Assembly: GCA_963737155.1 (NCBI GenBank)
Contig: CAVTRN010000002.1
Coordinates: 640,001-704,000 of the forward strand
Direction: 5' to 3'
DNA length: 64,000 nucleotides
Origin: Nitrospirota bacterium
GTDB taxonomy: Bacteria > Nitrospirota > UBA9217
The notes beneath the pieces are model-generated. The model made no database searches. It saw only the letters and a program-made list of their open reading frames with translations, and had not been told where the DNA came from. Below are positions 44,766 through 64,000 of this stretch, piece after piece; positions within the stretch are counted from its first letter, which is position 1; the number at the start of each line of letters is the position of its first letter. The position numbers and the translations under genes were made by a program.

Positions 44766-44861
44766 GGCATGAATCAATACAAGATTTTAAATCTTGGTGA
44801 AATTTAACGACAATGTTTATAATACAGGAACATGGTGCGTATTTGAAATTGTGCTCGGGAA

Positions 44862-47815: not shown

Positions 47816-47983
47816 GCGGGAACTCGCGCACAGCCACGGTCCCCGCGGTGCATAAAAACAGTAAGCTGGACATACAGGTGAACATGACTTCATGTTTTTC
47901 AGGCCGTGAATCCTGAACTTCGTTACTTACGGTAAGCGACGAAGTCGCTAGTCATTAAAACATCCTGACATAGAGAGGAAACT

Positions 47984-49354: not shown

Positions 49355-49386
49355 TATCCTCCCCAGCCTGAAGGCCTGGGATTCCC
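49351..49386 (-). mobile_element. Orphan IS605/IS1341-type right-end hairpin
   Basis: Minus strand GGGAATCCCAGGCCTTCAGGCTGGGGAGGATATCAA matches the GGAATCCCC..CTTCAGG..GGGGAGGATGTCAA right-end pattern ending in TCAA. Confidence 0.55.
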
Positions 49387-49613
49387 AAATCAGGCTCTGC
49401 CAATGCTCCGAGCCACTATGTTCGCAGATGCGGCAGTGATGTTTGCCACGTCAAAATCAAAATGCTGTCCAAAACAAGCTTTATCTTGGACGGGTATGGA
49501 ATGTGATCCAAAATGTGGCTTTTTTGTATGAAGCCATAATGAAAGGGAAATCGTTGAGATTACGCGGAAGTTCCTGGAGTGCCCCAAATGCTAGCGCCGT
49601 GAGGCTGCATGAG

Positions 49614-50501
49614 TTATTTGAGACGGGATTTATCCTCTCCCATCCCGAGTGCTTTCAGTATCTCGCTCACCGAATCTGACCGGTTCATGGTGTAAAAGTG
49701 GAAGTAGTTCACGCCGTGTTTTTTCAAATCAACGCACTGTTTGACCGCGAATTCCACACCCAGCTTCCGGATTTCCTGGGGCATGTCCATCACCGGCTCC
49801 ATCCTGTCCAGGATGTCCTGCGGCACGGATGTGTTGCAGAAACCAGCAAACTCCTTAATTTTTCTGCAGTCGATGATCGGCATAATGCCCGGCAGAATAG
49901 GGATCGTGATGCCGATCCTCTCTGCCCGCTCCATGAACTCGTAATAGTAACGGTTGTCGAAGAACATCTGGGTTATGCCGAAATCAGCGCCCGCGTCGAT
50001 TTTTTGCTTCGTATACTCCATGTCCTTCTCAATGCTCGGCGATTGGCCATGACCTTCGGGGTATACGGCAACGGCAATGGAAAAATGGCCGTCTTTTTTG
50101 ACGAACTCAACTAAATCCCGGGCATAGTTGAACTCTCCCCGCGCTGGGTCGAAATCAGGTGCGTTCTTCGGCCTGTCTCCGCGAAGTGCAAGGATGTTTT
50201 CGATGCCGTGGTCATGGTAATCCCTCAGGAGAGCATCCATAGACGCCCTGGTCGCGCCAATACACGTGAGGTGGGACATTACAGAGAGATCCGTTTCCTG
50301 TTTTAGCCACTGGAGCGTGCTGCTGGTCCTATCCTGGGTCGTACCGCCTGCGCCGTAAGTCACAGAAACATAGAATGGATCATAGACGCTCAAATCCCTC
50401 ACAACCTTCATGAACGCGTCTTTCCCTTCTGTCGACTTCGGCGGGAAAAATTCTAGAGAAATCCCCTGTTTTAGCTCTTCAAATTTGTCGCGTATTCTCA
50501 T
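49614..50501 (-). CDS. metF: 5,10-methylenetetrahydrofolate reductase
   Basis: SLEFFPPK, SVTYGAGG, HLTC, LALRGD, YPEGH, TQMFFD, HFYTMN. Confidence 0.95.
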   Translation of the reverse strand: MRIRDKFEELKQGISLEFFPPKSTEGKDAFMKVVRDLSVYDPFYVSVTYGAGGTTQDRTSSTLQWLKQETDLSVMSHLTCIGATRASMDALLRDYHDHGIENILALRGDRPKNAPDFDPARGEFNYARDLVEFVKKDGHFSIAVAVYPEGHGQSPSIEKDMEYTKQKIDAGADFGITQMFFDNRYYYEFMERAERIGITIPILPGIMPIIDCRKIKEFAGFCNTSVPQDILDRMEPVMDMPQEIRKLGVEFAVKQCVDLKKHGVNYFHFYTMNRSDSVSEILKALGMGEDKSRLK

Positions 50502-50867
50502 ATTTTAATAATAATCTAAAAAAGACCCAATTTGGGGTTGTTTTTCTGAGCTGCAGAAAGTGGTAAAATTCATTATGTATCGGAATTGCAAGAATTCGTA
50601 ATTATTATAATTATCGAGAAACGGAGGTGAGCAACATACTGCTCATCAATGGATTGAATACAGAAGAACTTACGGGGCCGGCTCATGGATCGGCACAAAA
50701 GCAATCTTGACAGAAGAAATGCACCGTGTTATGAATTCGTCAGAGAGCAATTGTTCCATGGTGCATGCAAAAGAAATCCAGCCAACCGCTCTCCTTGTTT
50801 TTTATTGTGCTTATACGAAGGGAAGAGCAGCGTTCTTGAACGCTGAATCGTTTGAGGGAGCTTCAAG

Positions 50868-53228
50868 ATGGGAACAGGGACTGAGAATATCAGAACACGA
50901 AAAGAATTTGCTATCGACAAAAAATTATACGAAAGCATCATGGACGGGATTACGTCTGGTGTCTGGGTGGCGGACAAGAATAACGTCATCTACTATGCGA
51001 ATAAAGCAATGGAGATGATAGCAGGAGTGACGCAACAGAAACTGATCGGGTCAAAGGTCTTCCCTAATAACGCGGAGCATGCGACAAAGGAATTTAGGCT
51101 CCACTACGATGAGGCGCAGGAGACTCTTCGGCCGGTGTATTATTCCGGGGCCTCCATCCTTACGTCGGCGGGAAAGCAGACATACCAGTCGGGGTGGCTG
51201 ATTCCGAAGATGAAAAAAGGATCTTACGACGGCATGATCTGCACGGTTGAGGATATTACAAATGAGAAACAGACAAGGAAAGCGCTAAAAGAGAGTGAAG
51301 CCAAATATCAGCAGCTTGTGGAAAGCGCCAACAGCATTATTCTGTGGATGGACAGCAAAGGTGTTATTACGTTCATTAATCCTTTTGCACGAAATTTATT
51401 CGGTTACGGCGAGCAGGAGATTATTGGTAAAAATATCTTGGGAACTATCGTGCCAGCAACGGAAAGCACCAGGCGGAATATGGAGACCATGCTGCAAAAC
51501 ATCGGGAACAATCCCGAGCAACATTCGAGCACTGAATATGAGATAATCCGGAAGAACGGAGACACTGTCTGGATATCCTTGTCGAACAAGGCGCTCTTCA
51601 GCGATAGTGGAACAATGAGCGGTATCCTCTGCATAGGCAATGATGTAACGATCCAGAAGCACCACGAAGCCCTTCTGACAAAGTGGAGCAGTGAGCTGGA
51701 AGAGAGAGTGAAGCTCGGCACCCTGCAGCTCAGCATTGCGAACGAGGAGCTCCAGCAGGAGATCGTCGAGCGCAAATGGATGGAGCAGAGCCTGCGGAAA
51801 TCGGAAGAAAAATACCGTCTCGTGGTTGAGTATGCGAATGAAGGCATCCTGATAACGCAGGATAATTACTTCCAGTATTTGAATCCCAAGGCGGTAAAGA
51901 TTTTGGGGCATCCCAAGGAAGAACTCACAGAAAGGCCATTCACCGATTTCATCTATCCCGACGACAGGGCGATGGTGACGGAGCGGCATCTGAAGAGAAT
52001 CAAGGGGGACAGTGTACCGCATTATTATTCCTGCAGAATCGTGGATGGTGAAGGGAACACCAAATGGCTGGAGATCAACTCGGTCCTGATCACATGGATG
52101 GGCAGGCCCGCCACGCTCGCCTTCTTCAACAACATCACGGAACGAAAGAAGGCCGAGGAGATGCTGCGACTGACAGAATCGGCGATTCAGCAGGCGGGAG
52201 ACTCTGTCGTCATTACAACGGCGAACCCTGTACGCTCTTCATCACGCATCGTTTTTTTCAATCCGGCTTTTACCAAAATGACGGGATATACGGCGGAAGA
52301 AGTTACTGACAAGCTCTCGCTTTTCCAGGGGCCGTTCACCGACGTCACGCAGTGGAAAAAGCTGGAGTCCGGTACATCGCAGAGCAAGGCCTTTTATCTT
52401 GAGACGGTGGCCACCCGGAAAGACGGAACGCAGTTTAATATGGAATGGCAGATTACCCCTCTGCGAGATGAAAGGGGAAAGGTCACTCATTTTGTCTCGG
52501 TCCAGCGGGACATAACCGAGAGGAAAAAGATCGAGGGGCAGGTTCACGCCTACCAGGAGCAGCTGCGGCTCCTGGCCTCGGAGCTGCTGCTCGCCGAGGA
52601 GCGGGAGCGAAGGCGCATCGCCATGGACCTTCACGATAATATCGGGCAGATGCTCGCCTTAACGAGGATCAAGCTCGGGGTACTCAGAAAATCGCTGTCC
52701 CGGGACGTCCACGAGGATGCCGTTAGCGGCATCGTTGAGCTCATCGATCAGTCGATCAGTTACACGAAATCCTTGTCCTTTGAGCTGAGTCCGCCGCTTC
52801 TGTATGATATCGGCATCGAAGCGACAATCGAATGGCTCGCAGAACATATGCAGAAACAGCATTACATTCTGTTCTACTGCAAAAATGACGGCAGCCCCAA
52901 GCCCTTGATGCGGGATGTCAGCATTCTCCTGTTCCAGACCGTGCGGGAGCTGTTCATGAATATTGTGAAGCACTCCCAGGCGCACCAGGTGAATGTCGGC
53001 ATCAGCCGCGAAGCCGATGACATTAAAATCGTCGTCGAAGACGACGGGATCGGATTCGATGCTTCGAAGATCGACACAAGCAGGACCTTTGGATTCTTCA
53101 GTATTCGGGAACGGTTAAAGTACCTTGGTGGCTCCCTGTCAATTGATACAGTGCCCGGCAGGGGCACTCGGGTTACAGTAACCTCACCTCTTGGCCAAAA
53201 AGATGTGAGGGAAGGAGTATCGTTATGA
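50868..53228 (+). CDS. Cytoplasmic four-PAS sensor histidine kinase (HisKA_3, NarX/UhpB type)
   Basis: Four PAS/PAC repeats ending in DIT/DVT/NIT; EERERRRIAMDLHDNIGQ; NIVKHS, DDGIGF; no TM segment seen. Confidence 0.92.
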   Translation: MGTGTENIRTRKEFAIDKKLYESIMDGITSGVWVADKNNVIYYANKAMEMIAGVTQQKLIGSKVFPNNAEHATKEFRLHYDEAQETLRPVYYSGASILTSAGKQTYQSGWLIPKMKKGSYDGMICTVEDITNEKQTRKALKESEAKYQQLVESANSIILWMDSKGVITFINPFARNLFGYGEQEIIGKNILGTIVPATESTRRNMETMLQNIGNNPEQHSSTEYEIIRKNGDTVWISLSNKALFSDSGTMSGILCIGNDVTIQKHHEALLTKWSSELEERVKLGTLQLSIANEELQQEIVERKWMEQSLRKSEEKYRLVVEYANEGILITQDNYFQYLNPKAVKILGHPKEELTERPFTDFIYPDDRAMVTERHLKRIKGDSVPHYYSCRIVDGEGNTKWLEINSVLITWMGRPATLAFFNNITERKKAEEMLRLTESAIQQAGDSVVITTANPVRSSSRIVFFNPAFTKMTGYTAEEVTDKLSLFQGPFTDVTQWKKLESGTSQSKAFYLETVATRKDGTQFNMEWQITPLRDERGKVTHFVSVQRDITERKKIEGQVHAYQEQLRLLASELLLAEERERRRIAMDLHDNIGQMLALTRIKLGVLRKSLSRDVHEDAVSGIVELIDQSISYTKSLSFELSPPLLYDIGIEATIEWLAEHMQKQHYILFYCKNDGSPKPLMRDVSILLFQTVRELFMNIVKHSQAHQVNVGISREADDIKIVVEDDGIGFDASKIDTSRTFGFFSIRERLKYLGGSLSIDTVPGRGTRVTVTSPLGQKDVREGVSL

Positions 53229-53872
53229 AACTCAAGGTCCTTCTGGCCGACGACCACGTTATGATGCGCGGCGGCCTTCGAATGTTACTCGAGCAGAATC
53301 CGGAACTTGCGGTAGTTGGAGAAGCCGAGGACGGCAGGGAGACAGTCCGTTTAGTCAGAAAACTGTCGCCGGACGTGGTAATCATGGACATTGCCATGCC
53401 CGATATGAACGGCATCGAAGCCACGCGCCAGGTTCTTGAAGGGCATCCCGGCATTAAAGTGATTGCGCTCTCCATGCATTCCGAGCGGCATTTCGTATCG
53501 GAGATGCTGAAAGCCGGGGCTTCAGCCTATCTCCTCAAGCAATGTGCCGTCGATGAACTTCTCACTGCCATCAAGACGGTGATGAAGAACCAGACCTATC
53601 TCAGCTCCTGCATTTCCGGTATAGTTGTAGACCATTTTGTGCGCAATGCATCGAAATCGGAGTCTACCGCATTCTCCCACCTGACCGACCGGGAGCGGGA
53701 GGTTCTCCAGCTCATGGCCGAAGGAATGACCTCCAAAGCGATAGCCAGTCAGCTGAATCTGAGCATCAAGACCATCGAAAGTCACCGGATGAATATAATG
53801 GAAAAGCTCAATATCCATACCGTCGCTGAATTGACGAAATACGCGATCCGCGAAGGACTGACCTCACTTTAG
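53225..53872 (+). CDS. NarL/LuxR-family response regulator
   Basis: LADDH, MDIAMP, LTDREREVLQL…SIKTIESHR HTH; ATGA overlap with the kinase. Confidence 0.95.
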   Translation: MKLKVLLADDHVMMRGGLRMLLEQNPELAVVGEAEDGRETVRLVRKLSPDVVIMDIAMPDMNGIEATRQVLEGHPGIKVIALSMHSERHFVSEMLKAGASAYLLKQCAVDELLTAIKTVMKNQTYLSSCISGIVVDHFVRNASKSESTAFSHLTDREREVLQLMAEGMTSKAIASQLNLSIKTIESHRMNIMEKLNIHTVAELTKYAIREGLTSL

Positions 53873-53949
53873 CACACTCCGATGCTGCTCAGCGCAACGC
53901 TGGCAATTACCCCGTACAACTTTCTTTGTATCCAAGTACCTTTCACTTC

Positions 53950-53990
53950 ATCAGTATTTCTCCTCCCCTAAAATCAGGGTTCTCCCTATT
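53950..53990 (+). promoter_or_regulatory. Candidate response-regulator binding sites upstream of the methyltransferase operon
   Basis: ATCAGTATTTCTCCT and ATCAGGGTTCTCCCT start 23 bp apart; the second lies in an imperfect palindrome (AATCAGGG-TTCT-CCCTATT). Confidence 0.35.
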
Positions 53991-54112
53991 TGTTTTCCAC
54001 TGGCAAAAAGATACATTAATGATCATACGAAGCAGTGTTCCCGGTCAAGCCCGGACCTGCTCACAAAAGCAATCATAATATGCAAACAAAAGACAAAGAG
54101 AAAGGAGTTTAT

Positions 54113-55147
54113 ATGGCAAACAAACTGACACCGAGGGAGAGGGTGCTGAAGTTACTTCATGGGGAACAGGTTGACCGTCCTCCCATCTTCAGTGGAATGG
54201 GAAACGTCATCAAGCCGGTATTCGATAAATACGGGATCCTATTTTCAAAGGTTCACCGGGACCCTGAACTCATGGCAAAAGCAGCTGGAGGGATGTACCG
54301 CGAGTACGGTTTTGAAGGCGCCGTCGTACCTTTCGACCTCGGAGTCGAGGCAGAAGTGCTTGGAGCGAAGCTAAATTTTTACGATGATGTCGAAGGCATC
54401 CTGTATCCGACCGTGAAAGAAAAGTCCGTGAAGGATGCGAGTGACGTACACATTCCCGACGATCTTGCACATGCCGGCAGGTTGCCGGTGGTGGTCGGCG
54501 CGATAAAGGCTCTGCGCAGGGAGCTGGGAAACGACGTGGCCATCGGGACTTATGTTCTCGGACCCTTTACCCTCGCCGGCCAGGTCAAGGAGCTCGATGC
54601 CCTCTACGAAGAATCTTTTCTCGAGCCGGAAAAGACCAGCAAATTGCTGGAGAGGCTCTCTGATTTCATCATCCGGATCTTCAAGATCTACCAGGCTGCG
54701 GGAGCGGACTATTTCACTCTCAGAGAAATGGGAGGAACTTCGGATGTCATGAGTCCTAGGAGCTTCAAGAGCCTTATTAAACCTCATTTGCAGAGGATAC
54801 TCTCTGAGATGCCCCGGCCCAGCATTCTTCATATCTGCGGAGACACGAACGCCATCATAATCGACATGGCAGAGTGTGGGGCCGATGCGGTCAGCGTGGA
54901 CCACAAGAACTGTCTGACTGAGACAAGACAGAAGCTGGGGCCGAAAGCCATTATCCTGGGCAATTTCGACCCCATCAAGGTCCTCCACAAGGGAGCAGCT
55001 AAAGATGTGGGCCCCGCCGTCATCGAATCTATCAATGGCGGGGCGAATGCTGTATGGCCCGGTTGTGACCTGTGGCCTGAGGTGTCGAAGGAAAATATGG
55101 AAGCGCTTATGAATGCTTTGAAAGAAATCAACGTAAAGGTCGCCTGA
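54113..55147 (+). CDS. MtaA/CmuA-family (UroD-fold) corrinoid methyltransferase 1
   Basis: AAAGGAG RBS; LTPRERV, DLGVEAEVLG, GPFTLA; zinc motif LHICG…PGCD; GNFDP. Confidence 0.88.
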   Translation: MANKLTPRERVLKLLHGEQVDRPPIFSGMGNVIKPVFDKYGILFSKVHRDPELMAKAAGGMYREYGFEGAVVPFDLGVEAEVLGAKLNFYDDVEGILYPTVKEKSVKDASDVHIPDDLAHAGRLPVVVGAIKALRRELGNDVAIGTYVLGPFTLAGQVKELDALYEESFLEPEKTSKLLERLSDFIIRIFKIYQAAGADYFTLREMGGTSDVMSPRSFKSLIKPHLQRILSEMPRPSILHICGDTNAIIIDMAECGADAVSVDHKNCLTETRQKLGPKAIILGNFDPIKVLHKGAAKDVGPAVIESINGGANAVWPGCDLWPEVSKENMEALMNALKEINVKVA

Positions 55148-55170
55148 CCGGAAGGTATGGAACTAATCCA

Positions 55171-55788
55171 ATGCGGCTCGTGCAAGTGGCGGGATGGCTC
55201 GGCTCGGGGAAGACGACCCTGATTATAGCCCTCAGTAAGGGGCTTTCTCAAAAGGGTGTTAAGGTCGCTGTACTCGTGAACGAGATCGGCGCAATTCCAG
55301 TAGACGGCAGAGTGATCCAGGACTATGGTCTCACGGTGAAGGACCTCGGAGGGGGCTGTATCTGCTGTCAAATGGCAGGCAGCATGATGAAGACGCTGAG
55401 ACTCCTTCGGGAAGGACCGAATCCCGATGTTGTCATTCTCGAGCCCTCGGGCATCGCGGTGCCGCATGCGGTCAAGGAAACGATTCTCTCTACGTCGCCA
55501 TCCAGAGAGATAACCCTTGGCCCGACAATCGTGCTATTCGACACCACGCGCGCAACAAAGCTCTTGGGCTATGAAACGTTACAAAGAGTCATCACCACCC
55601 AGTTAAAAGACGCTGATATCATCGCGCTTAGCAAAAGCGATGCGATAGCGGGTGAGGCTTTTGCGAAGGCAGGTGAATCGGTTCGAGCTATCAACCCTCG
55701 CGCGCAGATCATCCGCCTGTCGGTGACGAACGGTGACGGGATGGCGGCACTCACTCAGGCGGTGGAGGAGATGGCCATACAGGCATGA
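55171..55788 (+). CDS. G3E-family P-loop GTPase metallochaperone (CobW/HypB/UreG nucleotide-binding domain)
   Basis: GWLGSGKTT, VNEIG, GGCICC metal motif, EPSG, SKSD. Confidence 0.88.
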   Translation: MRLVQVAGWLGSGKTTLIIALSKGLSQKGVKVAVLVNEIGAIPVDGRVIQDYGLTVKDLGGGCICCQMAGSMMKTLRLLREGPNPDVVILEPSGIAVPHAVKETILSTSPSREITLGPTIVLFDTTRATKLLGYETLQRVITTQLKDADIIALSKSDAIAGEAFAKAGESVRAINPRAQIIRLSVTNGDGMAALTQAVEEMAIQA

Positions 55789-56198
55789 ACAACCTTCGGA
55801 TACATCCTCTTCATGAGGGCACGAGCGCCTATGCGACGGCCTGTTTCCTGTCGAGAGGAGGCAATATGGATAGCGCAGAGCTGCGCAGATTTGCGGAACG
55901 GTTGATGCATGCCATCTCGTCCTCTTCGATTAAGCGGGGCGCCAAGGTGATCGGGCACATCAAGGCTTACATTGAGCACCAGGATGGTTTCCTCCATGCC
56001 CATACCGTCGGAGAACCGGGAGACATCACCGTCGACGGCAGGGACGCAGGCCCGGTGGGACGGTTCAAACTCGTCGTGAATGCTATCATCTTCGGGCTCT
56101 CTGAGGAAGCGGTTAAGAACGCCGCGGATGAAGCAATCCGGGAAACTGCGGCCCTTTTCGATCTCGTGTGGGAGCCGGCCGGTTTATCAGGGGAATAA
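55785..56198 (+). CDS. Hypothetical protein with IGHIK motif, coupled to the G3E GTPase
   Basis: ATGA overlap; VIGHIKAY, LHAH, VNAIIFGL. Confidence 0.7.
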   Translation: MNNLRIHPLHEGTSAYATACFLSRGGNMDSAELRRFAERLMHAISSSSIKRGAKVIGHIKAYIEHQDGFLHAHTVGEPGDITVDGRDAGPVGRFKLVVNAIIFGLSEEAVKNAADEAIRETAALFDLVWEPAGLSGE

Positions 56199-56216
56199 AA
56201 AAGGAGAAAGATCACC

Positions 56217-57047
56217 ATGCGAGATACCATCCATCAAATACCGCTCGAGATCAACATGCAGGATTATCGGGTCATGAAGGAACCTTTTTATCTTCCCGTG
56301 CAGGACGAGGTGAAACTCTTCGAGATCGCCTATGAAAACAAGCTACCGTTGATGCTGAAAGGCCCCACGGGCTGCGGCAAGACAAGGTTCCTTTCCTACA
56401 TGGCGTATAAACAGGGCCTTCCCCTTATCACGGTGGGATGCCATGAAGACCTTACCGCCAGCGATCTTGTCGGCCGATATCTCCTCGATGGGGCCTCCAC
56501 GCGCTGGCAGGATGGCCCGATAACCCTTGCGGTCAAACATGGCGGGATCTGCTATCTCGACGAGATTGTTGAGGCGAGGAAGGACACCACGGTACTTATC
56601 CATCCCCTGACTGATGACAGGCGGGTCCTGCCGATTGAGAAGCGGGGTCAGATCATCGAAGCGGCGGACAATTTCATGATCGCCATTTCCTACAACCCCG
56701 GTTATCAGACGGTGCTCAAGGACCTCAAGCAGAGCACCAAGCAGCGCTTTATTTCGATCGATTTCGACTACCCGCCTGCACAGATTGAAGAAGAGATCAT
56801 CGTCCACGAGAGTGGCGTAGACCGAAACAATGCAGCGGTTCTTAGGAAGATCGCGGAAAAATTCCGCGCCATGAAGGGGCGGGGACTGGACGAAGGGGTA
56901 AGCACGAGGCTCCTGATCTATGCGGGGGTATTGATCCTGAAGGGAGTCGATCCCCGGCGGGCAAGCAGCGTTGCCCTCATAAAACCGATCACCGACGACC
57001 CGGAGATCCAGAAGACACTGGAAGAGATCGTCGCAGCGGTCGTGTAG
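56217..57047 (+). CDS. CbbQ/NirQ/NorQ-family MoxR AAA+ ATPase
   Basis: EPFY, Walker [22 protein letters not shown], Walker [30 protein letters not shown]. Confidence 0.93.
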
Positions 57048-57059
57048 GCGGATGACCTA

Positions 57060-59771
57060 ATGAGAGAGAATGGCATGGAAACCGGGCAGGCAGTCATTGC
57101 GGAGTTGGAGCAAACTCTAATCGATAAGATTGGTCATGATGAGGCTGCCCTTAAAACCATTGCCAGAGTAAGGGAACTCCTCGATGAACAGGGGAGGAAA
57201 GCATACCTCCTTCTCGTTGAGTCCTTCCTTTCTGTGGACGCTCCCTTTGCGAATCTCCTGATCAGAACCGGATACGAGACGCTATCCAGCATCCAGGGGC
57301 GGTCAGACCGCCGCGAGTCCCTCGAAGCGCTCCTCGGAATGGGAAGATCGAAATGGAGCGTCGTGGAACATGCCTACCTAAAGCTGCCGCAAATCGGCAG
57401 TGTTCCGGGTGAGTTCGTTCCCCGATGGCTGGGTTGGGGCAGAAGCCTTGCCGACATCGACCAGGACGTGGCGTTGCAGTATTTTGACTCCAGTCCAGCC
57501 GTGATAGGGAACATTGGCCATGAAAGAATGGAACGCTGGGCGCTGTCCGGTCTCGCGCTGGCAAAGAAGTCATGGAAGGCGGCAAGGGAATATTTCAAGT
57601 CGAGCCCGGAAATCACCAAAAAGATGGACCTCTGCGATCTCGATCGATGGGCGCGTATCGGCATGTATCTGATTGAAAAGAGTCCCCAGATGAAAGCTGG
57701 CTATGATGCCCATAGTCTCCTCGCGCAGGGCACCGGAGCAGGCAAGTCAAAGATCATGGATTCGGCCGTCCAATATTTCAAATCGGCCCCCCAGATACTG
57801 GGAAGACTTTCCCTGGATGATCTGGAAAACTGGGTGCAGAAGGGACTCGAGATCACCGGCACCGGAAACCGGAAGGGCGAGGCATACTTCTCCCTCAGGA
57901 CAAGCGCGAGCCATAAGGAGATGGATTTTCTCGTAAAGGGCATGGAGCTTAAGGACATTCATACGGTCCTCGACTCCTATGCAGAGTCCCTCATGGGACG
58001 GAAGGTGCGGATACGATCATCCTCTGTCTTTTACAAGAACCTGCCAGGGCTCGGCAGGTCATTCTCGGTGTCTGATGGATCGAGGGTTTTTATTCCGTCC
58101 CGCATGGAGATTTTCAACGAAGAAGAGCTCAATTTCAAAACCTATAAATGGGTGTTGACCCACGAACTCTCCCATCTCCTGTTCGGGACGTTTGCGATCA
58201 CCCAGGACGATAGGAAGCACCTCGCACAGTTCCAAGCCGCAGTTCCGTCATTCAAGATTTTTGAATTTCTCGAGGATGAGCGTGTTGACTTTCTTATGGG
58301 ACATCTTTATCCCGGTCTCGAAAAGGACAGGCAACTTATCATGAATGCGTTTGCCGCACAAATGGGCCGGAAGGACGAGCTCGGGCGGTCAGTCTTCGCG
58401 TCCGTCGGATTCCGGTTATCGGAAAAGCCGGATTCCTCGTCCCTTCGTCATAATCGTCTCAGTGGGCTCCTCTGCGAGGCGGTCTCCCGGGTGACGGTCC
58501 CGGATTGTACCATTCAAGACGTCCTTGCCCTCACCCTTAGGCTCTGCGAGGCGTGGGACGGCGCGGCCGCTTGTGAGCCCGGTGAAAGTCGGGAAACGGC
58601 AGACCGTCTCTTTTACCGCGGAGTACTCGATTTCAAGCTCGTTGAAGAGACGCGCATCGGCATGTCGAATCTGGTTGCCGGGATGGTCGAGCGTTTCCGG
58701 GAAAATAATAATGGGGCAACTCCTTTGAACATCGAGAAGGCTCTCGACAGGATCGATGAAGCCGAAGGTCCGGAATCTGAGATGCTCCTTTGGCAGATAA
58801 CGGACCCCGACGGCCTGGCGGAGCTCGCCCAACAGGTGGAGAGCGAACTCGAGGAAATTGAAAAGGAGAGTCGCTTCAGAAGGACCGTGCTCTACGACGA
58901 GTGGGACAACACCCTGGAGGACTACAAAAAGGAATGGTGCCGGGTGAGAGAGATTGATATGCCCTCCACATCACTCCTGTTTTACGACCGGACGGTGCAA
59001 CAGTATTACGGTATGGTCAGTCTCTTGCGGAGGCATTTCGGACTGCTTCGGCCCGACCGGATAAAACGTTATTTCCGCGAAGAGCGCGGGGATGACCTCG
59101 ATATTGATGCCCTCATCGAATCGGTTGTTGAGCGCCATGCGGGGATAACCCCCTCGGACCGCGTGTACATTCGCCGCGATAAGAAACTGCGTGACGTCTC
59201 GGTTGCCTTTCTCGTGGACATGAGCTTTTCGACCGGCGAAGCGCTCCCTTCAGGAAAAAGGATCATCGACGTCGAAAGTGAAGGGCTCGTCTTGATGGCC
59301 GAAGCCCTCGAAAGCATCGGCGACAGGTGGGCGGTATACGGATTTTCCACGGAGCGGAGAGACAAGGTGGATTTCTATGTGATCCGCGATTTCGATGAGC
59401 CTTTTAACGATGACGTGAAGATGCGCTTTGAGGGCATCAAACCCATGGCACAGACGAGGCTCGGAGCGGCCATCCGGCATGCAAACCGGTTGCTTGGGCG
59501 GCAGGATTCACTGATCCGGCTCCTGATCCTTCTCTCCGACGGCAGGCCCTATGACGTCGACTACGGAGACGTGGACTACGCAGTGGAGGACACGAAAATG
59601 GCCCTTTGGGAGGGCAGGGCCAAAGGGATCAGTTCCTACTGCATCACCGTCGATAAAAAGTCCAGGGACTATCTGCCCCATATGTATGGAGAGGCAAACT
59701 ACACCATCATCGACAACATCGATGCGCTGCCGATCAGCCTCCCCTTGATATATAAAAAACTTACCGTGTAG
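57060..59771 (+). CDS. NorD/CbbO-family VWA-domain adaptor protein
   Basis: N-terminal helical repeats (YFxSxP); HELSH…LEDERV; YDEWD…WC; MIDAS DMSFS, TRLGAAIRH, LSDGRP. Confidence 0.9.
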   Translation: MRENGMETGQAVIAELEQTLIDKIGHDEAALKTIARVRELLDEQGRKAYLLLVESFLSVDAPFANLLIRTGYETLSSIQGRSDRRESLEALLGMGRSKWSVVEHAYLKLPQIGSVPGEFVPRWLGWGRSLADIDQDVALQYFDSSPAVIGNIGHERMERWALSGLALAKKSWKAAREYFKSSPEITKKMDLCDLDRWARIGMYLIEKSPQMKAGYDAHSLLAQGTGAGKSKIMDSAVQYFKSAPQILGRLSLDDLENWVQKGLEITGTGNRKGEAYFSLRTSASHKEMDFLVKGMELKDIHTVLDSYAESLMGRKVRIRSSSVFYKNLPGLGRSFSVSDGSRVFIPSRMEIFNEEELNFKTYKWVLTHELSHLLFGTFAITQDDRKHLAQFQAAVPSFKIFEFLEDERVDFLMGHLYPGLEKDRQLIMNAFAAQMGRKDELGRSVFASVGFRLSEKPDSSSLRHNRLSGLLCEAVSRVTVPDCTIQDVLALTLRLCEAWDGAAACEPGESRETADRLFYRGVLDFKLVEETRIGMSNLVAGMVERFRENNNGATPLNIEKALDRIDEAEGPESEMLLWQITDPDGLAELAQQVESELEEIEKESRFRRTVLYDEWDNTLEDYKKEWCRVREIDMPSTSLLFYDRTVQQYYGMVSLLRRHFGLLRPDRIKRYFREERGDDLDIDALIESVVERHAGITPSDRVYIRRDKKLRDVSVAFLVDMSFSTGEALPSGKRIIDVESEGLVLMAEALESIGDRWAVYGFSTERRDKVDFYVIRDFDEPFNDDVKMRFEGIKPMAQTRLGAAIRHANRLLGRQDSLIRLLILLSDGRPYDVDYGDVDYAVEDTKMALWEGRAKGISSYCITVDKKSRDYLPHMYGEANYTIIDNIDALPISLPLIYKKLTV

Positions 59772-59779
59772 AAAGGAGA

Positions 59780-60019
59780 ATGACCATGGAAGTCTGTTAC
59801 AAATGCGGAAGAGCGGCTGAATACATTTGCCCCGATTGCGGGACGAAGGTCTGCAAGGCGCATATGGAGCTCCGGTATGCGGGACCGGACCGGGGTTTCA
59901 AGTCCCGTTATATGTGCCCGGAATGCTGGAAAGTCAAGAGGAAGATGCTGAACGAGCAAATGATAAAAGCGCAGCAGTATTTGGCGAAACAGTATTTCTT
60001 TTTTCCAGGAAAAGGTTAG
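59780..60019 (+). CDS. Small zinc-finger-like protein (79 aa)
   Basis: GAAAGGAG RBS; CxxC-x7-CxxC-x4-CxxH…CxxC. Confidence 0.75.
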   Translation: MTMEVCYKCGRAAEYICPDCGTKVCKAHMELRYAGPDRGFKSRYMCPECWKVKRKMLNEQMIKAQQYLAKQYFFFPGKG

Positions 60020-60031
60020 GGCAGGGGTGGC

Positions 60032-60730
60032 ATGCGGACACTGACAGCAACAGCGAAAAAAACGACGCGGGAGCGAGCGGCCGGTCGCGAAAAAATCAGA
60101 CAGCTTGAATGCTTTTCGATCGAACGCGGGGCGTACCGTGCACGGGCATTTTCCGCTCGAGGGGTCGTCATCGATGAACGGGTGAGGTTGAAGTGCCAGA
60201 TACCGCTCTGTCCTCACTATGGCAGAACGCTTACCTGCCCGCCCAACGTTCCTCCCTTTGAAGAATTCGTCAAAGCCGTGCGGCGTTATCAGACAGCCCT
60301 GCTCGTACAGACCCGGAGCGCACTGACTGGCGATATCGCGGTCTGCGACAGAGAGGAGGTCTTGAAATTCTTCGCGTCTCCGGGTGCGGCACAAAAGGAA
60401 AAAGGAGGTGAAAAGACTGGAACCGGCCAGAATCTTGACGCCATGAAGATCGCAGCTATTCGGCTGCACAAGCTCGTGAACGAGGTGGAACAAAAGGCCA
60501 TGTCCATGGGTTTTCCCTACGCGTTGGGACTCATAGGCGGTGAGTGTATGCTGTGCCAGGAATGTGCTGGCGCGGGTTCGGGAAAGGCATGCCGGCGTCC
60601 CTATGAAGCACGGCCTTCCATGGAGGGAGTCGGGATCGATGTCATCAAGACGAGCGCCGCGGCGGGGCTGCCCTTCGAACTACCCCCGAAACAGGAGATC
60701 GTCTGGTCAGGTTTAATACTGATCGATTAA
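60032..60730 (+). CDS. DUF2284-like predicted metal-binding protein
   Basis: DERVRLKC-x3-C-x2-YG-x3-CPP; GECMLCQEC; CRRP-ARPSMEGVGIDV. Confidence 0.85.
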   Translation: MRTLTATAKKTTRERAAGREKIRQLECFSIERGAYRARAFSARGVVIDERVRLKCQIPLCPHYGRTLTCPPNVPPFEEFVKAVRRYQTALLVQTRSALTGDIAVCDREEVLKFFASPGAAQKEKGGEKTGTGQNLDAMKIAAIRLHKLVNEVEQKAMSMGFPYALGLIGGECMLCQECAGAGSGKACRRPYEARPSMEGVGIDVIKTSAAAGLPFELPPKQEIVWSGLILID

Positions 60731-60807
60731 GGCAGGAGACGGTCTTGCATGGTCAAGGCTGTCTGGAAACCACATTGTTAGGTGCACAACGACCACAGGA
60801 GGCAAAT

Positions 60808-61872
60808 ATGACTGACAGTATGAACGGACTTGAAAGAATAGCGACAGCTTTCCAGATGAAGGAAGCGGACAGGGTCCCGGTTGCGCCCCTGGTATGCGGA
60901 GCGACTCATCGGGCTGCAGGTATGACATATGGCGAATGGTCACGGATGACGGATGTCGATGCAATGGTAAGAGGCCATGTAGATTCGCTGGATCTTATAG
61001 GACATGACGGCGTCGTGATGCTTGTCGATCTGTCCGTAGAGGCCCAGACTTTTGGATGCGAAGTCATTTTCCCCGAAAACGACACAGCACACCCGAATTA
61101 CGATGACCCATTCATCAAAGGCCCCGAAGATTACAAAAAAATCAAGAAGATCAACCCGAGGAAAACAGGAAGAATGAAAGGCGTGATTGACCTCACATCG
61201 GGACTGTCCAAAGTGATCGGCAAAACCCATGGGATCGTGGGGTTCGTATATGGGTCCCTGGGGGTGCTGAGCATGATGCGCGGACCCGAGGCCTTCTTCA
61301 TGGACTTGATGGAACACCCGAAAGAGGTCATGGATGCCGTAAATATCATGGATGAGGCGCTTATAGATTACGCCGTGGCCCAGGCCGAGGCGGGAGCACA
61401 TTCTGTCTGCTATGACAACCTCTATGCATCCCAGAGCATTCTGAGCAAGGAACTTTGGGAAAAGTTCGAAGGACCATCGGTAAAGAAGGTATGCGATGCA
61501 ATACGCAAGGCAGGGGCCTTCGTGAGCTTTCACAATTGCGGCAACGGCATCTACTTCGATATGACAGAAAAATGGGGAAACCCCACAGCCATCTCCCATG
61601 CCTATGTAGCCGACGATGTGGACAGCTGGGAAGAGCATAAAGCCAAGTGGGGGAAGAAGATTACCACAATTGGATGGGTGCCGCCGGGACCGGTTGCGAT
61701 GCTCGGCACGCCCGAAGAAATAGAGGAGGAATGCAAGGCCGAGCTTGAGATTTTTGCAAAAGGCGGAGGATTTATTCTGTCTACGGGATGCGAGTTCGGG
61801 CCGAACGCGCCTCTCAGGAACGCAAAGAGGATCGTGGAAGCGTCCAAGAAATACGGTGTGTACCGGAAGTAG
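60808..61872 (+). CDS. MtaA/CmuA-family (UroD-fold) corrinoid methyltransferase 2
   Basis: AGGAGG RBS; DRVPVAP, DLSVEAQTFG, MMRG; zinc motif FHNCG…STGCE; GGFIL. Confidence 0.88.
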   Translation: MTDSMNGLERIATAFQMKEADRVPVAPLVCGATHRAAGMTYGEWSRMTDVDAMVRGHVDSLDLIGHDGVVMLVDLSVEAQTFGCEVIFPENDTAHPNYDDPFIKGPEDYKKIKKINPRKTGRMKGVIDLTSGLSKVIGKTHGIVGFVYGSLGVLSMMRGPEAFFMDLMEHPKEVMDAVNIMDEALIDYAVAQAEAGAHSVCYDNLYASQSILSKELWEKFEGPSVKKVCDAIRKAGAFVSFHNCGNGIYFDMTEKWGNPTAISHAYVADDVDSWEEHKAKWGKKITTIGWVPPGPVAMLGTPEEIEEECKAELEIFAKGGGFILSTGCEFGPNAPLRNAKRIVEASKKYGVYRK

Positions 61873-62031
61873 ACGCAATACGGTTCCCTTTTTGCCGGGG
61901 CGGGAATGACCATCGTTTTAGCGATTGAGGAACGATAACGCAATCGGGAACCAGGCGCAAGACTCCCTGCAGCGGAGTTGCAGGATGTAAATTCTATGAG
62001 CTGAAGCAAATCACGATAAGGAGATAAAAAC

Positions 62032-62703
62032 ATGGCTACGGAAGAAAAAGAGAAAGAGCTCATCAAGAGACTTCAAGAGGCGGTGATCAACTTCAAAGTG
62101 GAGGATTCGCGGAAGGCGGCCCAGGAGGCCGTCGCGGTTGGCGCAAACGCCTATCGGATGACGATGGAGGGTCTTGCGGGAGGGATGGAGGTCGTAAGCC
62201 AGAAGTTCGACTGCCATGAGTATTTCGTGCCTGAGACCCTACTCTGTGCGAAGGCGCTTTATGCTGCGCTCGACGTCCTGAAACCTCATATCAAGGTCGA
62301 GGGAGAAGTAAAAAAAGGGCAGGTCGTTCTCGGTGTTATGCAGGGTGATGTCCACGATCTCGGAAAAAACCTCATCAAGGCCATCTTCGAGGCTTCTGGC
62401 TGGACCGTGCATGACCTTGGTCGGGATGTCCCGCTCAATAAATTCGTGGAAGAGCAGCTCAAGACTGACTCCGACATCATCATGCTCTCCGCCATGATGA
62501 CGACTTCGATGGTGGGCATCAAGAAGCTAATCCCGATGATCAAGGAGAAGAACCCGAAAGTGAAGATCATGATCGGGGGCGCTCCGGTGACCGAGAAAGC
62601 TGTTGAGGAGTACGGCGCCGATACCACGGCCGACAACGCGCCGAATGCCCTCAAGGAAGCGATGAAGATGCTCGACACCCTGAGAAAGGGAAAGGCAGCA
62701 TAG
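62032..62703 (+). CDS. Methyltransferase corrinoid protein (MtaC/MtbC/MttC-like)
   Basis: N-terminal cap domain (EYFVPE); B12 motif GDVHDLGKN; LSAMMTTSM; MIGGAP. Confidence 0.93.
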   Translation: MATEEKEKELIKRLQEAVINFKVEDSRKAAQEAVAVGANAYRMTMEGLAGGMEVVSQKFDCHEYFVPETLLCAKALYAALDVLKPHIKVEGEVKKGQVVLGVMQGDVHDLGKNLIKAIFEASGWTVHDLGRDVPLNKFVEEQLKTDSDIIMLSAMMTTSMVGIKKLIPMIKEKNPKVKIMIGGAPVTEKAVEEYGADTTADNAPNALKEAMKMLDTLRKGKAA

Positions 62704-62849
62704 GAAGATAGAGGCCCTCAAACCCGCAGTTTATCCGCGAGAAGCCTGACTGTCGGGGAGCGTGCAGAAGAATGCAGGTGAGGTTATCACGCTTGGAGTT
62801 ACACAGCTGACACCGCGGACAGCATGTTTGTGAGGAGGATTAAGGGGAT

Positions 62850-64000
62850 ATGGATCATACGATTATTTTTCAGCCCTCTGGCCGGCGCGGCCAGGTACCG
62901 GAAGGCACCACCATTCTCGATGCGGCGAGAAGGCTGGGGGTGGGCATCGAGGCAGTATGCGGAGAGCAGCTCGTGTGCGGAAAGTGCCGCGTCAAGGTGA
63001 TGGAGGGGAATTTCCCGAAGGAAGGCATAACATCCTCCATGAGTCACCTGAGTGGGCTTGACGAGAAGGAGATAAAAGTCCTGAAGCGCAAGGACTCCGA
63101 TGAGCATCTCCGCCTGGCCTGTTCTACAAAAATCCTAGGGGATGTGCTCGTCTTTGTTCCCGAGGCCAGCCGTACGGGAAAGCAGGTCGTGAGCAAAGCG
63201 GCCGGAGCGATCAAGGTCACGCTGAAGCCGGCCGTAAAAAAATATTACATCGAGCTTCCGGAGCCGGCTCTTGGCGATCCGCTCGGAGATTTCGAGCGGG
63301 TCGAGAACGTTCTTGCAAAAAAGCACGGACTGAAGCGGCTCTCCATTGATTACCGCACCCTCCAGAAACTTCCTGATGTGGCCAGAAAGGGCGAGTGGAA
63401 GATTACGGTAACGGTGTGGAACAATGCGGAGATCATCAGGGTCGAACCGGGCAGGGTCGAAACGAATATCGGTCTAGCCGTTGACATCGGCACGACAACC
63501 GTGGCAGGCTACCTGACAGACCTCAATACCGGTAAAGTGCTCATAACGGAGTCGATGATGAACCCCCAGGTGCGTTACGGGGAAGACGTCATGTCCCGCA
63601 TCACCTACTGTATGATGAATGAGACGTCGGGCCTTAAGGAGCTGCAGGATACAATCATCGAGGGGCTGAATACGATCGCAAAACAGTCCGCGGAAAAGGC
63701 GGGATTTACTGCGGAAGACATCAGCGAAATGACTCTCGTGGGAAACACCGCCATGCATCACATCCTCCTTGGGATCAATCCTGAGTTTACCGGGGTGGCG
63801 CCTTTTACCCCGGCCCTCCATCGCTCCGTCGATGTCAAGGCGGACCGGTTCGGGATCCAGATCCTTCCCTCGGGCAATATCCATGTGTTACCTATCGAGG
63901 CGGGCTTCGTGGGTGCGGACAATGTGGGTTGCCTTCTTGCCGATGCTCCTCACAAGCGCAAGGAGATGACGCTTCTCATCGACATCGGCACCAACGGGGA
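62850..64000 (+). CDS. ATP-dependent corrinoid reductive activase (RACo/RamA-like, ASKHA with N-terminal 2Fe-2S); truncated by the window end
   Basis: Absent from the ORF track because it has no stop in the window. Manual translation: MDHTIIFQPSGRRG…CGEQLVCGKC…RLAC…AVDIGTTT…NPQVRYGEDVMSRI…GNTAMHH…GFVGAD…IDIGTNG. Confidence 0.92.
   Translation, partial: MDHTIIFQPSGRRGQVPEGTTILDAARRLGVGIEAVCGEQLVCGKCRVKVMEGNFPKEGITSSMSHLSGLDEKEIKVLKRKDSDEHLRLACSTKILGDVLVFVPEASRTGKQVVSKAAGAIKVTLKPAVKKYYIELPEPALGDPLGDFERVENVLAKKHGLKRLSIDYRTLQKLPDVARKGEWKITVTVWNNAEIIRVEPGRVETNIGLAVDIGTTTVAGYLTDLNTGKVLITESMMNPQVRYGEDVMSRITYCMMNETSGLKELQDTIIEGLNTIAKQSAEKAGFTAEDISEMTLVGNTAMHHILLGINPEFTGVAPFTPALHRSVDVKADRFGIQILPSGNIHVLPIEAGFVGADNVGCLLADAPHKRKEMTLLIDIGTNG

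Follow-up and report, generated by a model that had tools for sequence, protein, structure and literature searches.

A corrinoid methyl-transfer cassette of a Nitrospirota bacterium with a putative NorQ/NorD-like metal-centre assembly or repair module

In a 64,000-nt stretch of Nitrospirota DNA (hereafter the window), ten consecutive genes combine corrinoid methyl-transfer enzymes with an AAA+ ATPase and a von Willebrand factor A (VWA) protein. With moderate confidence, we favour reading this region as a corrinoid methyl-transfer cassette equipped with its own metal-centre assembly or repair module, the second of its two methyltransferases (MT2) being the likeliest client. Gene content, motifs, homology to CbbQ/NorQ and NorD, linkage in other genomes and strict co-distribution with MT2 were established directly. 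The conserved arrangement suggests a class of enzyme not described before as a client of NorQ/NorD-type chaperones. Only the AAA+/VWA part, on which we found no paper, appears to be new; an association of COG0523 GTPases with corrinoid methyltransferases had been noted in 2009 (PMC2770081).

All coordinates are positions in the window and domains were assigned with Pfam unless stated otherwise (Table 1). The domain scan covered the 34 ORFs of the window and 10 ORFs downstream, the other non-shadow frames all being shorter than 250 aa. A sequence-only reading of this DNA had listed ten plus-strand genes separated by short gaps, and the ORF list and Pfam place all of them where it had put them. 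The gene of the RACo-type activase extends beyond the window: complete, it encodes 649 aa, with a stop codon 800 bases past the window end and a RACo_C_ter domain (6.9e-99). Five of the cassette's ten proteins carry motifs of the zinc type. The sensor histidine kinase encoded upstream, whose gene shares 4 bases with that of the response regulator, is a probable regulator of the cassette; a kinase homologue upstream of the cassette was found in 18 of the 47 linked loci described below, and a response regulator likewise in 18 of 47.

Table 1. Genes of the cassette and of the two-component system preceding it
Feature	Position	Strand	Family and score
Sensor histidine kinase	50868..53228	+	Pfam several PAS + HisKA_3 + HATPase_c
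LuxR/GerE-type response regulator	53225..53872	+	Pfam
MT1, MtaA-like URO-D corrinoid methyltransferase	54113..55147; ORF open from 54035	+	Pfam URO-D 2.7e-65
Short COG0523/CobW-type G3E GTPase	55171..55788	+	Pfam cobW 7.6e-35
p137, 137 aa, contains IGHIK	55785..56198	+	none
CbbQ/NorQ-type MoxR AAA+ ATPase	56217..57047	+	Pfam AAA_5 + CbbQ_C, 7e-30
VWA adaptor, 903 aa	57060..59771	+	Pfam VWA weak, 0.0045; NorD by profile, 1e-62
Cys-rich zinc ribbon, 79 aa	59780..60019	+	zf-HIT 7.8e-4, under Pfam cut-off
DUF2284 protein	60032..60730	+	Pfam DUF2284 2e-41
MT2, divergent URO-D methyltransferase	60808..61872; ORF open from 60745	+	Pfam URO-D 2.1e-55
Corrinoid carrier protein	62032..62703	+	Pfam B12-binding_2 + B12-binding
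RACo-type ATP-dependent reductive activase	62850..64000 and on	+	Pfam Fer2, RACo_linker, Raco_middle

The first methyltransferase, MT1, is close to MtaA: it scores 253.1 bits against NCBIfam PRK06252 (cut-off 244) and aligns with the solved MtaA 4ay7 at 3.1e-45, HIC and GC included, so that the H-x-C...C zinc ligands are retained. Since the MtaA alignment begins at residue 30 of the open frame, its start is likely the ATG at 54113, as the earlier reading had it. MT2, likely starting at the ATG at 60808, matches 4ay7 at only 3.5e-14; its zinc ligands are H-N-C...C, and H242, C244 and C328 are invariant in 23 sequences. The DxHxxG motif of the corrinoid carrier is of the base-off/His-on type. 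The Type 1 mlp clusters described by Kountz and Balskus (PMC10418091) resemble the cassette: multiple MtaA-like URO-D proteins, each with a His-Cys-Cys zinc site, are encoded alongside a corrinoid protein and a RACo/RACE activase, and an obvious tetrahydrofolate methyltransferase is missing from both. In contrast to the gene content of the cassette, the terms AAA, VWA, von Willebrand, CobW, MoxR and DUF2284 do not occur in the main text of PMC10418091.

The ATPase is a typical CbbQ/NorQ protein, with Walker A GPTGCGKT and Walker B YLDE, whose best match among solved structures is CsoCbbQ 5c3c (5.9e-113), NorQ 9qh4 matching at 1.2e-98. The sequence-only reading had stated that CbbQ/CbbO act on Rubisco and NorQ/NorD on NO reductase, in agreement with published work. 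As in NorQ/NorD, which supply the FeB non-haem iron of cytochrome c-dependent NO reductase, the two genes are adjacent and the ATPase comes first. The profile of the VWA protein matches NorD (9qhd_G) at positions 587-889 only, corresponding to a NorD-like VWA domain at residues ~600-903 whose MIDAS (DxSxS-T-D) is intact and conserved. Unlike that of NorD (~340 residues), the N-terminal part comprises 600 residues and bears no significant NorD match (score -1.8 for the first stretch). It contains predicted helical repeats (residues 1-210), followed in the middle part by HExxH...ED.R (H368, E369, H372, E405, D406, R408), invariant except in Actinomycetota versions, which lack HExxH. The Pfam SprT-like match has an E-value of only 0.053 and a model of the N-terminal 600 residues found no significant match among solved structures in a fold search, so that a zincin-like site at HExxH would be no more than putative.

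We suggest the following mode of action, taking the NorQD mechanism described in PMC13036017 as a model. The cassette would be self-contained and inducible, comprising two thiol-type (His-Cys-Cys) zinc methyltransferases, the corrinoid carrier and the RACo activase. The module proper would be formed by the CxCC COG0523 GTPase with p137 as partner, the CbbQ/NorQ-type AAA+ ring and the NorD-type VWA adaptor, to which the Nitrospirota-type module would add the zinc-ribbon protein and the DUF2284 metal protein. The VWA domain would plug into the ATPase ring, and the client would be gripped by the MIDAS site together with the long helical-repeat/HExxH region, then opened through ATP-driven twisting. 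This would allow the insertion of a metal ion, most likely Zn2+ delivered by the GTPase, or the clearing of an inactive state. Binding, client, metal and direction of the reaction are what we infer. MtaA-type enzymes generally come out with zinc from ordinary expression hosts, so it is not obvious why inserting it should require ATP-driven machinery.

The GTPase (205 aa) has the Walker A motif GSGKT and the metal motif GCICC (GCxCC), no CobW_C C-terminal domain, and a score of 113.5 bits against NCBIfam CobW_rel_Se, under the cut-off of 180. The p137 protein is a candidate partner of the GTPase: its gene shares 4 bases with that of the GTPase and is kept beside it in 39 of the 47 linked loci. 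It has no match in Pfam or NCBIfam, and its nearest Atlas clusters are unnamed. The zinc ribbon has CxxC pairs at 6/9, 17/20 and 46/49 plus C25 and H28; it was found in 31/47 linked loci, every one with the Nitrospirota-type gene order. The DUF2284 protein (34/47 loci) carries CxxCxxC...C, which probably forms a site for Fe-S or for some other metal, and 7 kb downstream a DUF2284 domain is fused to a BzaC-like methyltransferase. Haas et al. 2009 (PMC2770081) places genes of COG0523 subfamily 13 GTPases in clusters with mtaA/mtaB/mtaC-type genes and an activase, a setting shared by the cassette GTPase. Unlike in the cassette, MoxR, AAA and von Willebrand are absent from the main text of that study.

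Found together in a B12 setting, a G3E GTPase bearing a metal motif, an AAA+ protein related to MoxR and a VWA protein recall the CobW and CobS/CobT proteins of aerobic cobaltochelatase. The three proteins could thus form a class I chelatase motor inserting cobalt during cobamide biosynthesis, placed here only owing to cobamide genes nearby. The trio does mirror CobW + CobST as these are described in the literature, and cobamide genes lie 9-16 kb downstream. We nevertheless consider such a motor very improbable: a search of the whole genome, which is 100% complete, gave no match to the CobN/ChlH family; Pfam and NCBIfam give CbbQ_C but not CobS for the ATPase, and no CobT for the VWA protein; and the nearest solved relatives are CbbQ, NorQ and NorD. 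Moreover, the neighbours in the cassette are enzymes that use B12, not a subunit of a chelatase, and in other phyla the pair accompanies methyltransferase genes and not cobamide genes.

The sequence-only reading had proposed a maturation or repair machine for a methyltransferase and had asked for the neighbourhoods of homologues. Defining linkage as a URO-D methyltransferase or corrinoid protein gene within 8 kb of the gene of a VWA-protein relative, we found 47 of 70 such loci to be linked, with three gene orders. The complete ten-gene order is present in 24 loci, and 10 further loci cut by contig ends are collinear as far as they extend. This arrangement is far beyond chance, given its recurrence in these 24 complete and 10 cut loci of other genomes and the presence of only four loci with such methyltransferase/corrinoid genes in the 4.84 Mb of the genome itself. 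It spans several bacterial phyla and is rearranged in Actinomycetota (RACo-MT-CP-AAA-VWA-CobW-p137-CobW-MT, CP being the corrinoid protein), in Peptococcaceae/Desulfotruncus (CP-CobW-AAA-VWA-DUF2284-MT-CP-RACo) and in one Methanosarcinaceae archaeon (locus L071). Against the favoured reading, locus L077 has no GTPase. In the tree, one clade (support 95/84) contains 43 linked loci and 2 others, and since the linked loci all fall in one clade, the linkages are not of independent origins. The conserved linkage and the DNA downstream, described next, run contrary to both outcomes that the sequence-only reading had named as refuting it, and lend the maturation or repair reading comparative support. 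Which protein is the client, and whether it receives a metal, is loaded with cobamide or is freed from an inhibited state, is what we infer.

The earlier reading's observation that no Rubisco, NO reductase (NorB) or glycyl-radical enzyme is encoded in the window holds for all 34 ORFs scanned. Past base 64000, where it had asked for another client to be sought, the 10 ORFs over 18 kb include no known MoxR client; this DNA carries the remainder of RACo, DUF1638, a SAM methyltransferase, FolD, a bzaC-bzaD-bzaE-cobT-ThiC-type benzimidazole cluster and cobQ. Unlike the NorQ/NorD genes, the pair has no nor genes nearby (window and downstream ORFs), and it stands with a COG0523 GTPase in a corrinoid methyltransferase operon. 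It resembles CbbQ/CbbO, the chemoautotroph Rubisco activase, in joining a MoxR ATPase, closest to CsoCbbQ, to a large VWA adaptor; in contrast, no solved CbbO chain is among the matches of the VWA-protein profile, and the genome's only Rubisco-family gene (RuBisCO_large, C2:2465662) is 1.7 Mb away. The latter gene and the COX1-family genes (C2:2509876, C1:1694297) leave the idea that the pair ended up in the operon by accident and serves a distant known client, either a haem-copper/NorB-like oxidase or a protein of the Rubisco-like type. This is extremely improbable and near refutation because of the conserved linkage: the operon position is kept in the 34 same-order loci and, rearranged, in other phyla. 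In addition, the candidate genes are 1.7 Mb off or on another contig, and a second AAA/VWA pair (C2:1500051-1503269) could serve them.

The same linkage would be expected if the pair built no metal centre and remodelled complexes of the cassette, as CbbQO frees inhibited Rubisco, for instance if the carrier became trapped with a methyltransferase or RACo in a dead-end complex and had to be released, or if a wrongly alkylated state or an inhibited one had to be cleared. The ATPase is equally close to CbbQ and NorQ, and RACo systems pass through transient complexes and oxidation-prone Co(I), as described in PMC10418091. We regard such remodelling as quite unlikely: the company of the pair, which includes a GTPase with CxCC, a zinc ribbon and a DUF2284 protein that binds metal, suggests metal handling, reductive reactivation is already the task of RACo, and paralogous systems do without the pair. 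For instance, the genome itself encodes a paralogous set of MT1 (49%), CP (54%) and RACo (56%) with no AAA/VWA genes, the URO-D protein of which is only 24% identical to MT2.

Metal-centre assembly or repair with MT2 as client is consistent with this paralogous set and with gene distribution in a sample of 401 genomes of the phylum (E<=1e-60 for MT1 and MT2). Orthologues of the VWA N-terminal part occur in 10 of them and MT2 in exactly the same 10. MT1 occurs in 74, and the 64 without the VWA orthologue carry only 46-54% paralogues. Since every other cassette-specific gene co-distributes equally, the match between VWA protein and MT2 narrows the choice of client without singling one out.

The client could instead be the corrinoid carrier, the AAA+/VWA pair loading, exchanging or extracting the cobamide in its base-off/His-on pocket, comparably to ATP-dependent B12-dehydratase reactivases and to the G-protein-gated B12 loading of methylmalonyl-CoA mutase. 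In favour of this, MeaB, which gates the latter loading, is a sister G3E GTPase. MeaB is not known to have a CxCC motif, and the presence of this metal-ion motif in the cassette GTPase argues against the carrier. So do L047 and L049, which have the pair, GTPases and MT2 and no CP within 8 kb, although their flanks extend ~10 kb in both directions, as well as the functioning without the pair of the 54%-identical CP of the same genome and of MT1/CP/RACo-type systems in many others. Unlikely as we consider it, the carrier has gene order in its favour: in Actinomycetota and Peptococcaceae the CP gene directly precedes AAA or CobW-AAA, and in L071 it directly follows AAA-VWA with neither a URO-D gene nor a GTPase within 8 kb. 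It would also be consistent with the second DUF2284 gene located a few kb past the cassette in the window locus, L023, L027 and L041, which for the window locus is part of the benzimidazole/cobamide biosynthesis cluster.

Ten closely spaced frames on the + strand run from position 54035 to the window end, and Pfam gave names to eight of them (see the table). ORF calls, Pfam and the profile comparison with NorD agree with the gene description of the sequence-only reading, both in the ten frames and in the families named, and two corrections were added: the GTPase lacks a C-terminal domain and the gene of the activase RACo continues beyond the window. In what follows, MT1 and MT2 are the first and second URO-D methyltransferases, p137 is the 137-aa product of the third frame, the pair is the CbbQ/NorQ-type ATPase with the VWA protein, and the module is the pair with the GTPase and p137. 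C1 and C2 denote contigs of the same genome, and L followed by a number denotes a surveyed locus.

Coordinates of the cassette genes and of related loci in the same genome (window coordinates unless a contig or locus is named)
Feature	Coordinates	Strand	Basis and remarks
MT1, URO-D methyltransferase	54035 (open frame) or 54113 to 55147	+	Pfam
cobW-type G3E GTPase	55171-55788	+	Pfam cobW, 7.6e-35
p137	55785-56198	+	no family; 4-base overlap with GTPase gene; letters IGHIK
ATPase	56217-57047	+	Pfam AAA_5 8.6e-28, CbbQ_C 7.2e-30, both over cut-offs
VWA protein	57060-59771	+	weak Pfam VWA match
Zinc ribbon	59780-60019	+	weak Pfam match; three CxxC pairs
DUF2284	60032-60730	+	Pfam; motif CxxCxxC...C
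MT2, URO-D methyltransferase	60745 (open frame) or 60808 to 61872	+	Pfam
Corrinoid protein	62032-62703	+	Pfam B12-binding_2 and B12-binding; DxHxxG motif
RACo activase	62850 to 800 bases past the window	+	Pfam
Second ATPase/VWA pair	C2:1500051-1503269 = L011:12052-15270	-	
Paralogous corrinoid methyltransferase locus	C1:905392-914484		no AAA/VWA pair
Benzimidazole lower-ligand cluster and CobQ	L006:7083-16366 = C2:709082-718365		just past the window

The ATPase is a MoxR AAA+ protein of the CbbQ/NorQ type, with an AAA_5 core and a C-terminal domain, intact Walker A (GPTGCGKT, residues 48-55) and Walker B (YLDE, residues 113-116) motifs, and end-to-end likeness to solved members (5.9e-113 with CsoCbbQ, 5c3c, over residues 7-272; 1.2e-98 with NorQ, 9qh4). 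For its partner, a profile was built from the window's 903-aa protein and 15 relatives. It matched solved NorD at 1e-62, the last 300 residues aligning to NorD 344-643. The MIDAS residues (DxSxS, T and D) are aligned and conserved, and DMS[YF]S was present in all full-length relatives of the protein's clade. The VWA protein shares the C-terminal MIDAS VWA domain of NorD/CbbO-type adaptors but not the NorD N-terminal domain, for which profile comparison returned a single non-significant stretch of 27 residues (score -1.8). In the solved NorQD complexes (PMC13036017), a finger of the VWA protein lies inside the pore of the ring that the ATPase forms. The client is proposed there to be gripped at two places, the MIDAS site and the N-terminal domain, and to be opened for metal insertion by a rotation in steps. 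Judged by sequence, our pair appears to have every feature required for the ring-adaptor part.

Residues 1-600 of the VWA protein were modelled with a mean pLDDT of 81.4 and are predicted to form about ten repeat-type helices with a mixed region after them. A search for similar folds with this model gave no match at E<=0.001 and only a metalloprotease at E 0.46; the model of the whole protein (mean pLDDT 70.7) matched in its VWA domain only, to NorD. Pfam searches at E values up to 10 yielded chance-level matches only for this region and for p137 (SprT-like 0.053, AfsA 0.095, Fe_dep_repr_C 0.016). In an HExxH region, residues H368, E369, H372, E405, D406 and R408 are invariant in an alignment of 20 sequences that covers three types of gene order; the motif is absent from the Actinomycetota versions, the Acidobacteria relatives and the paralogue in the same genome.

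The GTPase has the nucleotide-binding domain of COG0523/CobW proteins and their CxCC metal motif (GCICC at residues 62-66), but Pfam found no CobW_C domain and the protein stops after 205 aa. Comparing p137 by hhalign with roughly aligned long CobW frames gave a probability of 0.2, so that p137 is not shown to stand in for that domain; an Atlas search with p137 returned unnamed clusters only. Both methyltransferases share the URO-D fold and the zinc ligands of MtaA/CmuA-type enzymes. The HIC and GC of MT1 align with MtaA (4ay7), the H-x-C...C ligands being kept, and so do the HNC and GC of MT2, which are invariant in 23 sequences. Kountz and Balskus (PMC10418091) give these ligands as a sign of sulfur- or selenium-directed enzymes. 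Only MT1 passes the 244-bit cut-off of the MtaA subfamily (NCBIfam PRK06252), with 253.1 bits against 130.2 for MT2. The full 649-aa RACo matched all four expected families (Fer2, linker, middle and ASKHA C-terminal domains).

To survey gene neighbourhoods, the VWA alignment was scanned against one genome per species, and the resulting 70 loci were searched by tblastn with the window proteins and with profiles made for each family from the matches. All ten genes stand in the window's order at 24 of the 70 loci and 10 further loci are collinear with the window as far as contig ends allow; the taxon labels of these loci are Nitrospirota, Nitrospinota, Thermodesulfobacteriota and one Rokubacteria bin. 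A URO-D methyltransferase or corrinoid protein gene lies at most 8 kb from the VWA gene at 47 loci, called linked hereafter, showing that the corrinoid/methyltransferase linkage noticed in the window is conserved around VWA homologues. These 47 loci contain a methyltransferase (46), p137 (39), the ATPase (41), the GTPase (38), the corrinoid protein (35), DUF2284 (34), RACo (31) and the zinc ribbon (31), counts in which many absences are contig ends and the GTPase absences in L019, L023 and L039 are artefacts of the overlap filter, the gene being present by tblastn. Other gene orders were also found: RACo-MT-CP-AAA-VWA-CobW-p137-CobW-MT in Actinomycetota (MT, methyltransferase; CP, corrinoid protein), regulator-CP-CobW(long)-AAA-VWA-DUF2284-MT-CP-RACo-MtrH-like-PNPOx-MT in Desulfotruncus arcticus and a Peptococcaceae bin, and AAA-VWA-CP with DUF1638 nearby in a Methanosarcinaceae bin. 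The carriers are uncultured Nitrospirota, Nitrospinota, Desulfobacterota and Actinomycetota, with at least one cultured strain, D. arcticus DSM 17038 (L052), which makes experiments possible.

The tree of VWA domains has a clade (support 95/84) that comprises 43 linked loci together with L055 and L062; the archaeal sequence falls outside this clade on a long branch. L062 is a contig of 3.5 kb. In L055, from an Actinomycetota bin, the pair directly follows LarB-like (AIRC) and LarC-like (Ni_insertion) genes (L055:6614-12304), which is another metal-cofactor setting. The linked loci are therefore kin, and point to a single old association that survived rearrangement rather than to many independent ones. 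The 23 unlinked loci comprise one fragmentary protein of the window's type, three very weakly matching loci from Blautia, proteins of about 670 aa with a convergent ATPase gene (Binatia and deltaproteobacterial bins) and proteins of about 1000 aa without an adjacent ATPase gene (Acidobacteria and others). The last family (L045, L048, L053, L063, L065 and L078) has a portion of the N-terminal region (about residues 110-390) in common with the window's protein; its members at the surveyed loci lack the HExxH motif and have no corrinoid genes beside them, and their neighbours vary (ResB-like, cpYpsA, patatin-like). VWA C-terminal sequences are identical between L025 (Nitrospina) and L051 (Desulfobacteraceae) and between L046 (Clostridia) and L067 (Acidobacteriota), and nearly so between L063 (Blastocatellia) and L065 (Actinomycetota), so that some taxon labels are probably wrong.

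We then examined co-distribution in 401 genomes of the window's phylum. Near-full-length orthologues of the N-terminal 600 residues of the VWA protein were detected in 8 other genomes (E<=1.6e-133, 44-58% identity) and a fragment in one genome of the same genus; 63 further genomes gave weak matches only (22-32% identity over parts of residues 71-518), which are proteins of the 1000-aa kind. At a threshold of E<=1e-60, MT2 has matches in exactly the 10 genomes with a VWA orthologue, the window's own included, and in none of the others, and these matches lie on the same contig as the VWA orthologue, a few kb away. Within this sample MT2 never occurs without the pair. At the same threshold MT1 matches in 74 of the 401 genomes: the same 10 at 73-100% identity, and 64 with paralogues at 46-54%. 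Other cassette-specific genes are distributed like MT2, and the client is thereby narrowed down, not proven. A complex predicted from alignments between MT2 and the VWA N-terminal 600 residues, run without controls, scored 0.00 (mark 0.32), which weighs neither for nor against an interaction.

Paralogues in the same genome bear on this point. The C1 locus encodes relatives of MT1 (49% identical), the corrinoid protein (54%; one of two adjoining 230-aa frames) and RACo (56%). Its URO-D genes number two, the neighbouring URO-D protein there being only 24% identical to MT2, and the opposite strand carries the gene of a longer COG0523 GTPase. Such pair-less paralogues indicate that MT1-, carrier- and activase-type proteins work without the pair. 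A machine that loads, swaps or exchanges the cobamide of the carrier protein is a minority reading, to which we would give a small but real chance. Just past the window the remainder of RACo is followed by DUF1638, a SAM methyltransferase, FolD, the benzimidazole cluster and CobQ; the cluster encodes a BzaC-like O-methyltransferase/DUF2284 fusion, two B12-binding radical SAM proteins, a CobT phosphoribosyltransferase and a ThiC-type protein. L023, L027 and L041 also have a second DUF2284 gene a few kb beyond RACo.

Known clients of MoxR/VWA pairs are Rubisco, NO reductase, CO dehydrogenase, methanol dehydrogenase and class I chelatases. Whereas NorD/CbbO genes sit beside nor genes or Rubisco, neither is found in the frames scanned here: Rubisco, haem-copper/NorB and glycyl-radical families are missing from 34 frames of the window, those outside the scan all being shorter than 250 aa, and from 10 frames in the 18 kb downstream. 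The absence of a known client claimed for the window thus holds, and extends to the region past 64000. The genome does contain a RuBisCO_large-family gene 1.7 Mb away and COX1-family genes at two far sites, and service to such a distant client is scarcely plausible in our view. It is also very unlikely that the pair is the motor of a CobNST-like chelatase: the cobaltochelatase family signatures are not found, no cassette protein matching the CobS or CobT families of Pfam and NCBIfam, and its partner CobN (PF02514) has no match anywhere in the genome.

The ring-adaptor features, the metal-motif GTPase, the zinc ribbon and DUF2284, together with a divergent zinc methyltransferase that travels with them, favour a role at a metal centre. 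We consider it somewhat more probable than not that the module assembles or repairs a metal centre for the methyltransferase system. The favoured client is MT2, held with less assurance than the metal-centre role itself, and the favoured metal is zinc. Tentatively, the pair, GTPase and p137 could form an ATP/GTP-driven apparatus that inserts or repairs the metal in the active site of MT2-type enzymes; MT2 would then stay immature without the module and would typify a previously unrecognised family of corrinoid-dependent methyltransferases. A remodelling of dead-end complexes that involves no metal seems unlikely to us. The proposal that the pair matures or repairs a B12 methyltransferase, made in the sequence-only reading, has withstood both the downstream inspection and the neighbourhood survey, and is strengthened by the co-distribution of MT2.

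To our knowledge, MoxR/VWA pairs are common in genomes and few of their clients are known. Strict co-inheritance with a corrinoid methyltransferase system puts forward a further class of client, open to testing, and links the mechanism of a COG0523 GTPase with that of a MoxR machine. If the inserter reading is true, B12-dependent methyl transfer would have its first client of a MoxR/VWA pair, and a G3E metallochaperone and a MoxR machine would for the first time be seen to act as one apparatus outside the tetrapyrrole chelatases. Some such methyltransferases may need helpers for activity, which matters for their expression in biocatalysis and for methyl-sulfur, methyl-selenium and methoxy turnover in anoxic sediments.

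With two URO-D proteins, a corrinoid protein and RACo, the cassette resembles in composition the type 1 mlp cluster, which has at least Mlp2 and Mlp3 clade members, a corrinoid protein and an activase. The mlp clusters, as described in the main text of Kountz and Balskus (PMC10418091), have the methyltransferase/carrier/activase core and lack the pair, and the mec cassette is like them in this. Haas et al. 2009 (PMC2770081) already reported that COG0523 genes adjoin mtaABC and ramM; the main text of that paper contains no MoxR or VWA term. A full-text literature search, whose coverage excludes supplements and subscription journals, found no description of the cassette; papers joining corrinoid/methyltransferase with MoxR/VWA/CobW terms concerned cobaltochelatase, metal homeostasis reviews and genome surveys. 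In our reading, the cassette couples a G3E GTPase to a MoxR/VWA chaperone whose class of client is apparently undescribed.

Upstream of the cassette, Pfam identified a PAS histidine kinase and a LuxR-type regulator, preceded by a methylenetetrahydrofolate reductase on the opposite strand. Promoter and terminator counts over 49300-64000 were at shuffle level (11 vs 9.8 and 12 vs 13.5), and the search for sequencing runs listed no RNA run and seven DNA runs with shares of 0.10-0.27. Further upstream, 43233-49354 (+) encodes an aldehyde dehydrogenase, a class III aminotransferase, an FAD-linked oxidase and a 456-aa family-less protein, none of them conserved beside the cassette in other loci. The oxidase (46250-47815) is 32% identical to one upstream of the pair in L047; we take this likeness as coincidence, the 456-aa neighbour having no match to the Fe-S part of the L047 oxidase. 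A 1931-aa fusion of CheB methylesterase, CheR methyltransferase, several PAS/GAF domains and a histidine kinase lies at 11037-16832 (-).

In the second pair of the genome, the CbbQ/NorQ-type ATPase is 60% identical to that of the cassette, and the 767-aa VWA protein matches over the last 300 residues only (43%). This pair adjoins a DsrC-like gene and a 519-aa DDE transposase (L011:15534-17093, -), whose Pfam scores are identical to those of a 519-aa frame in the window (23297-24856, -); the two are probably copies of one insertion sequence.
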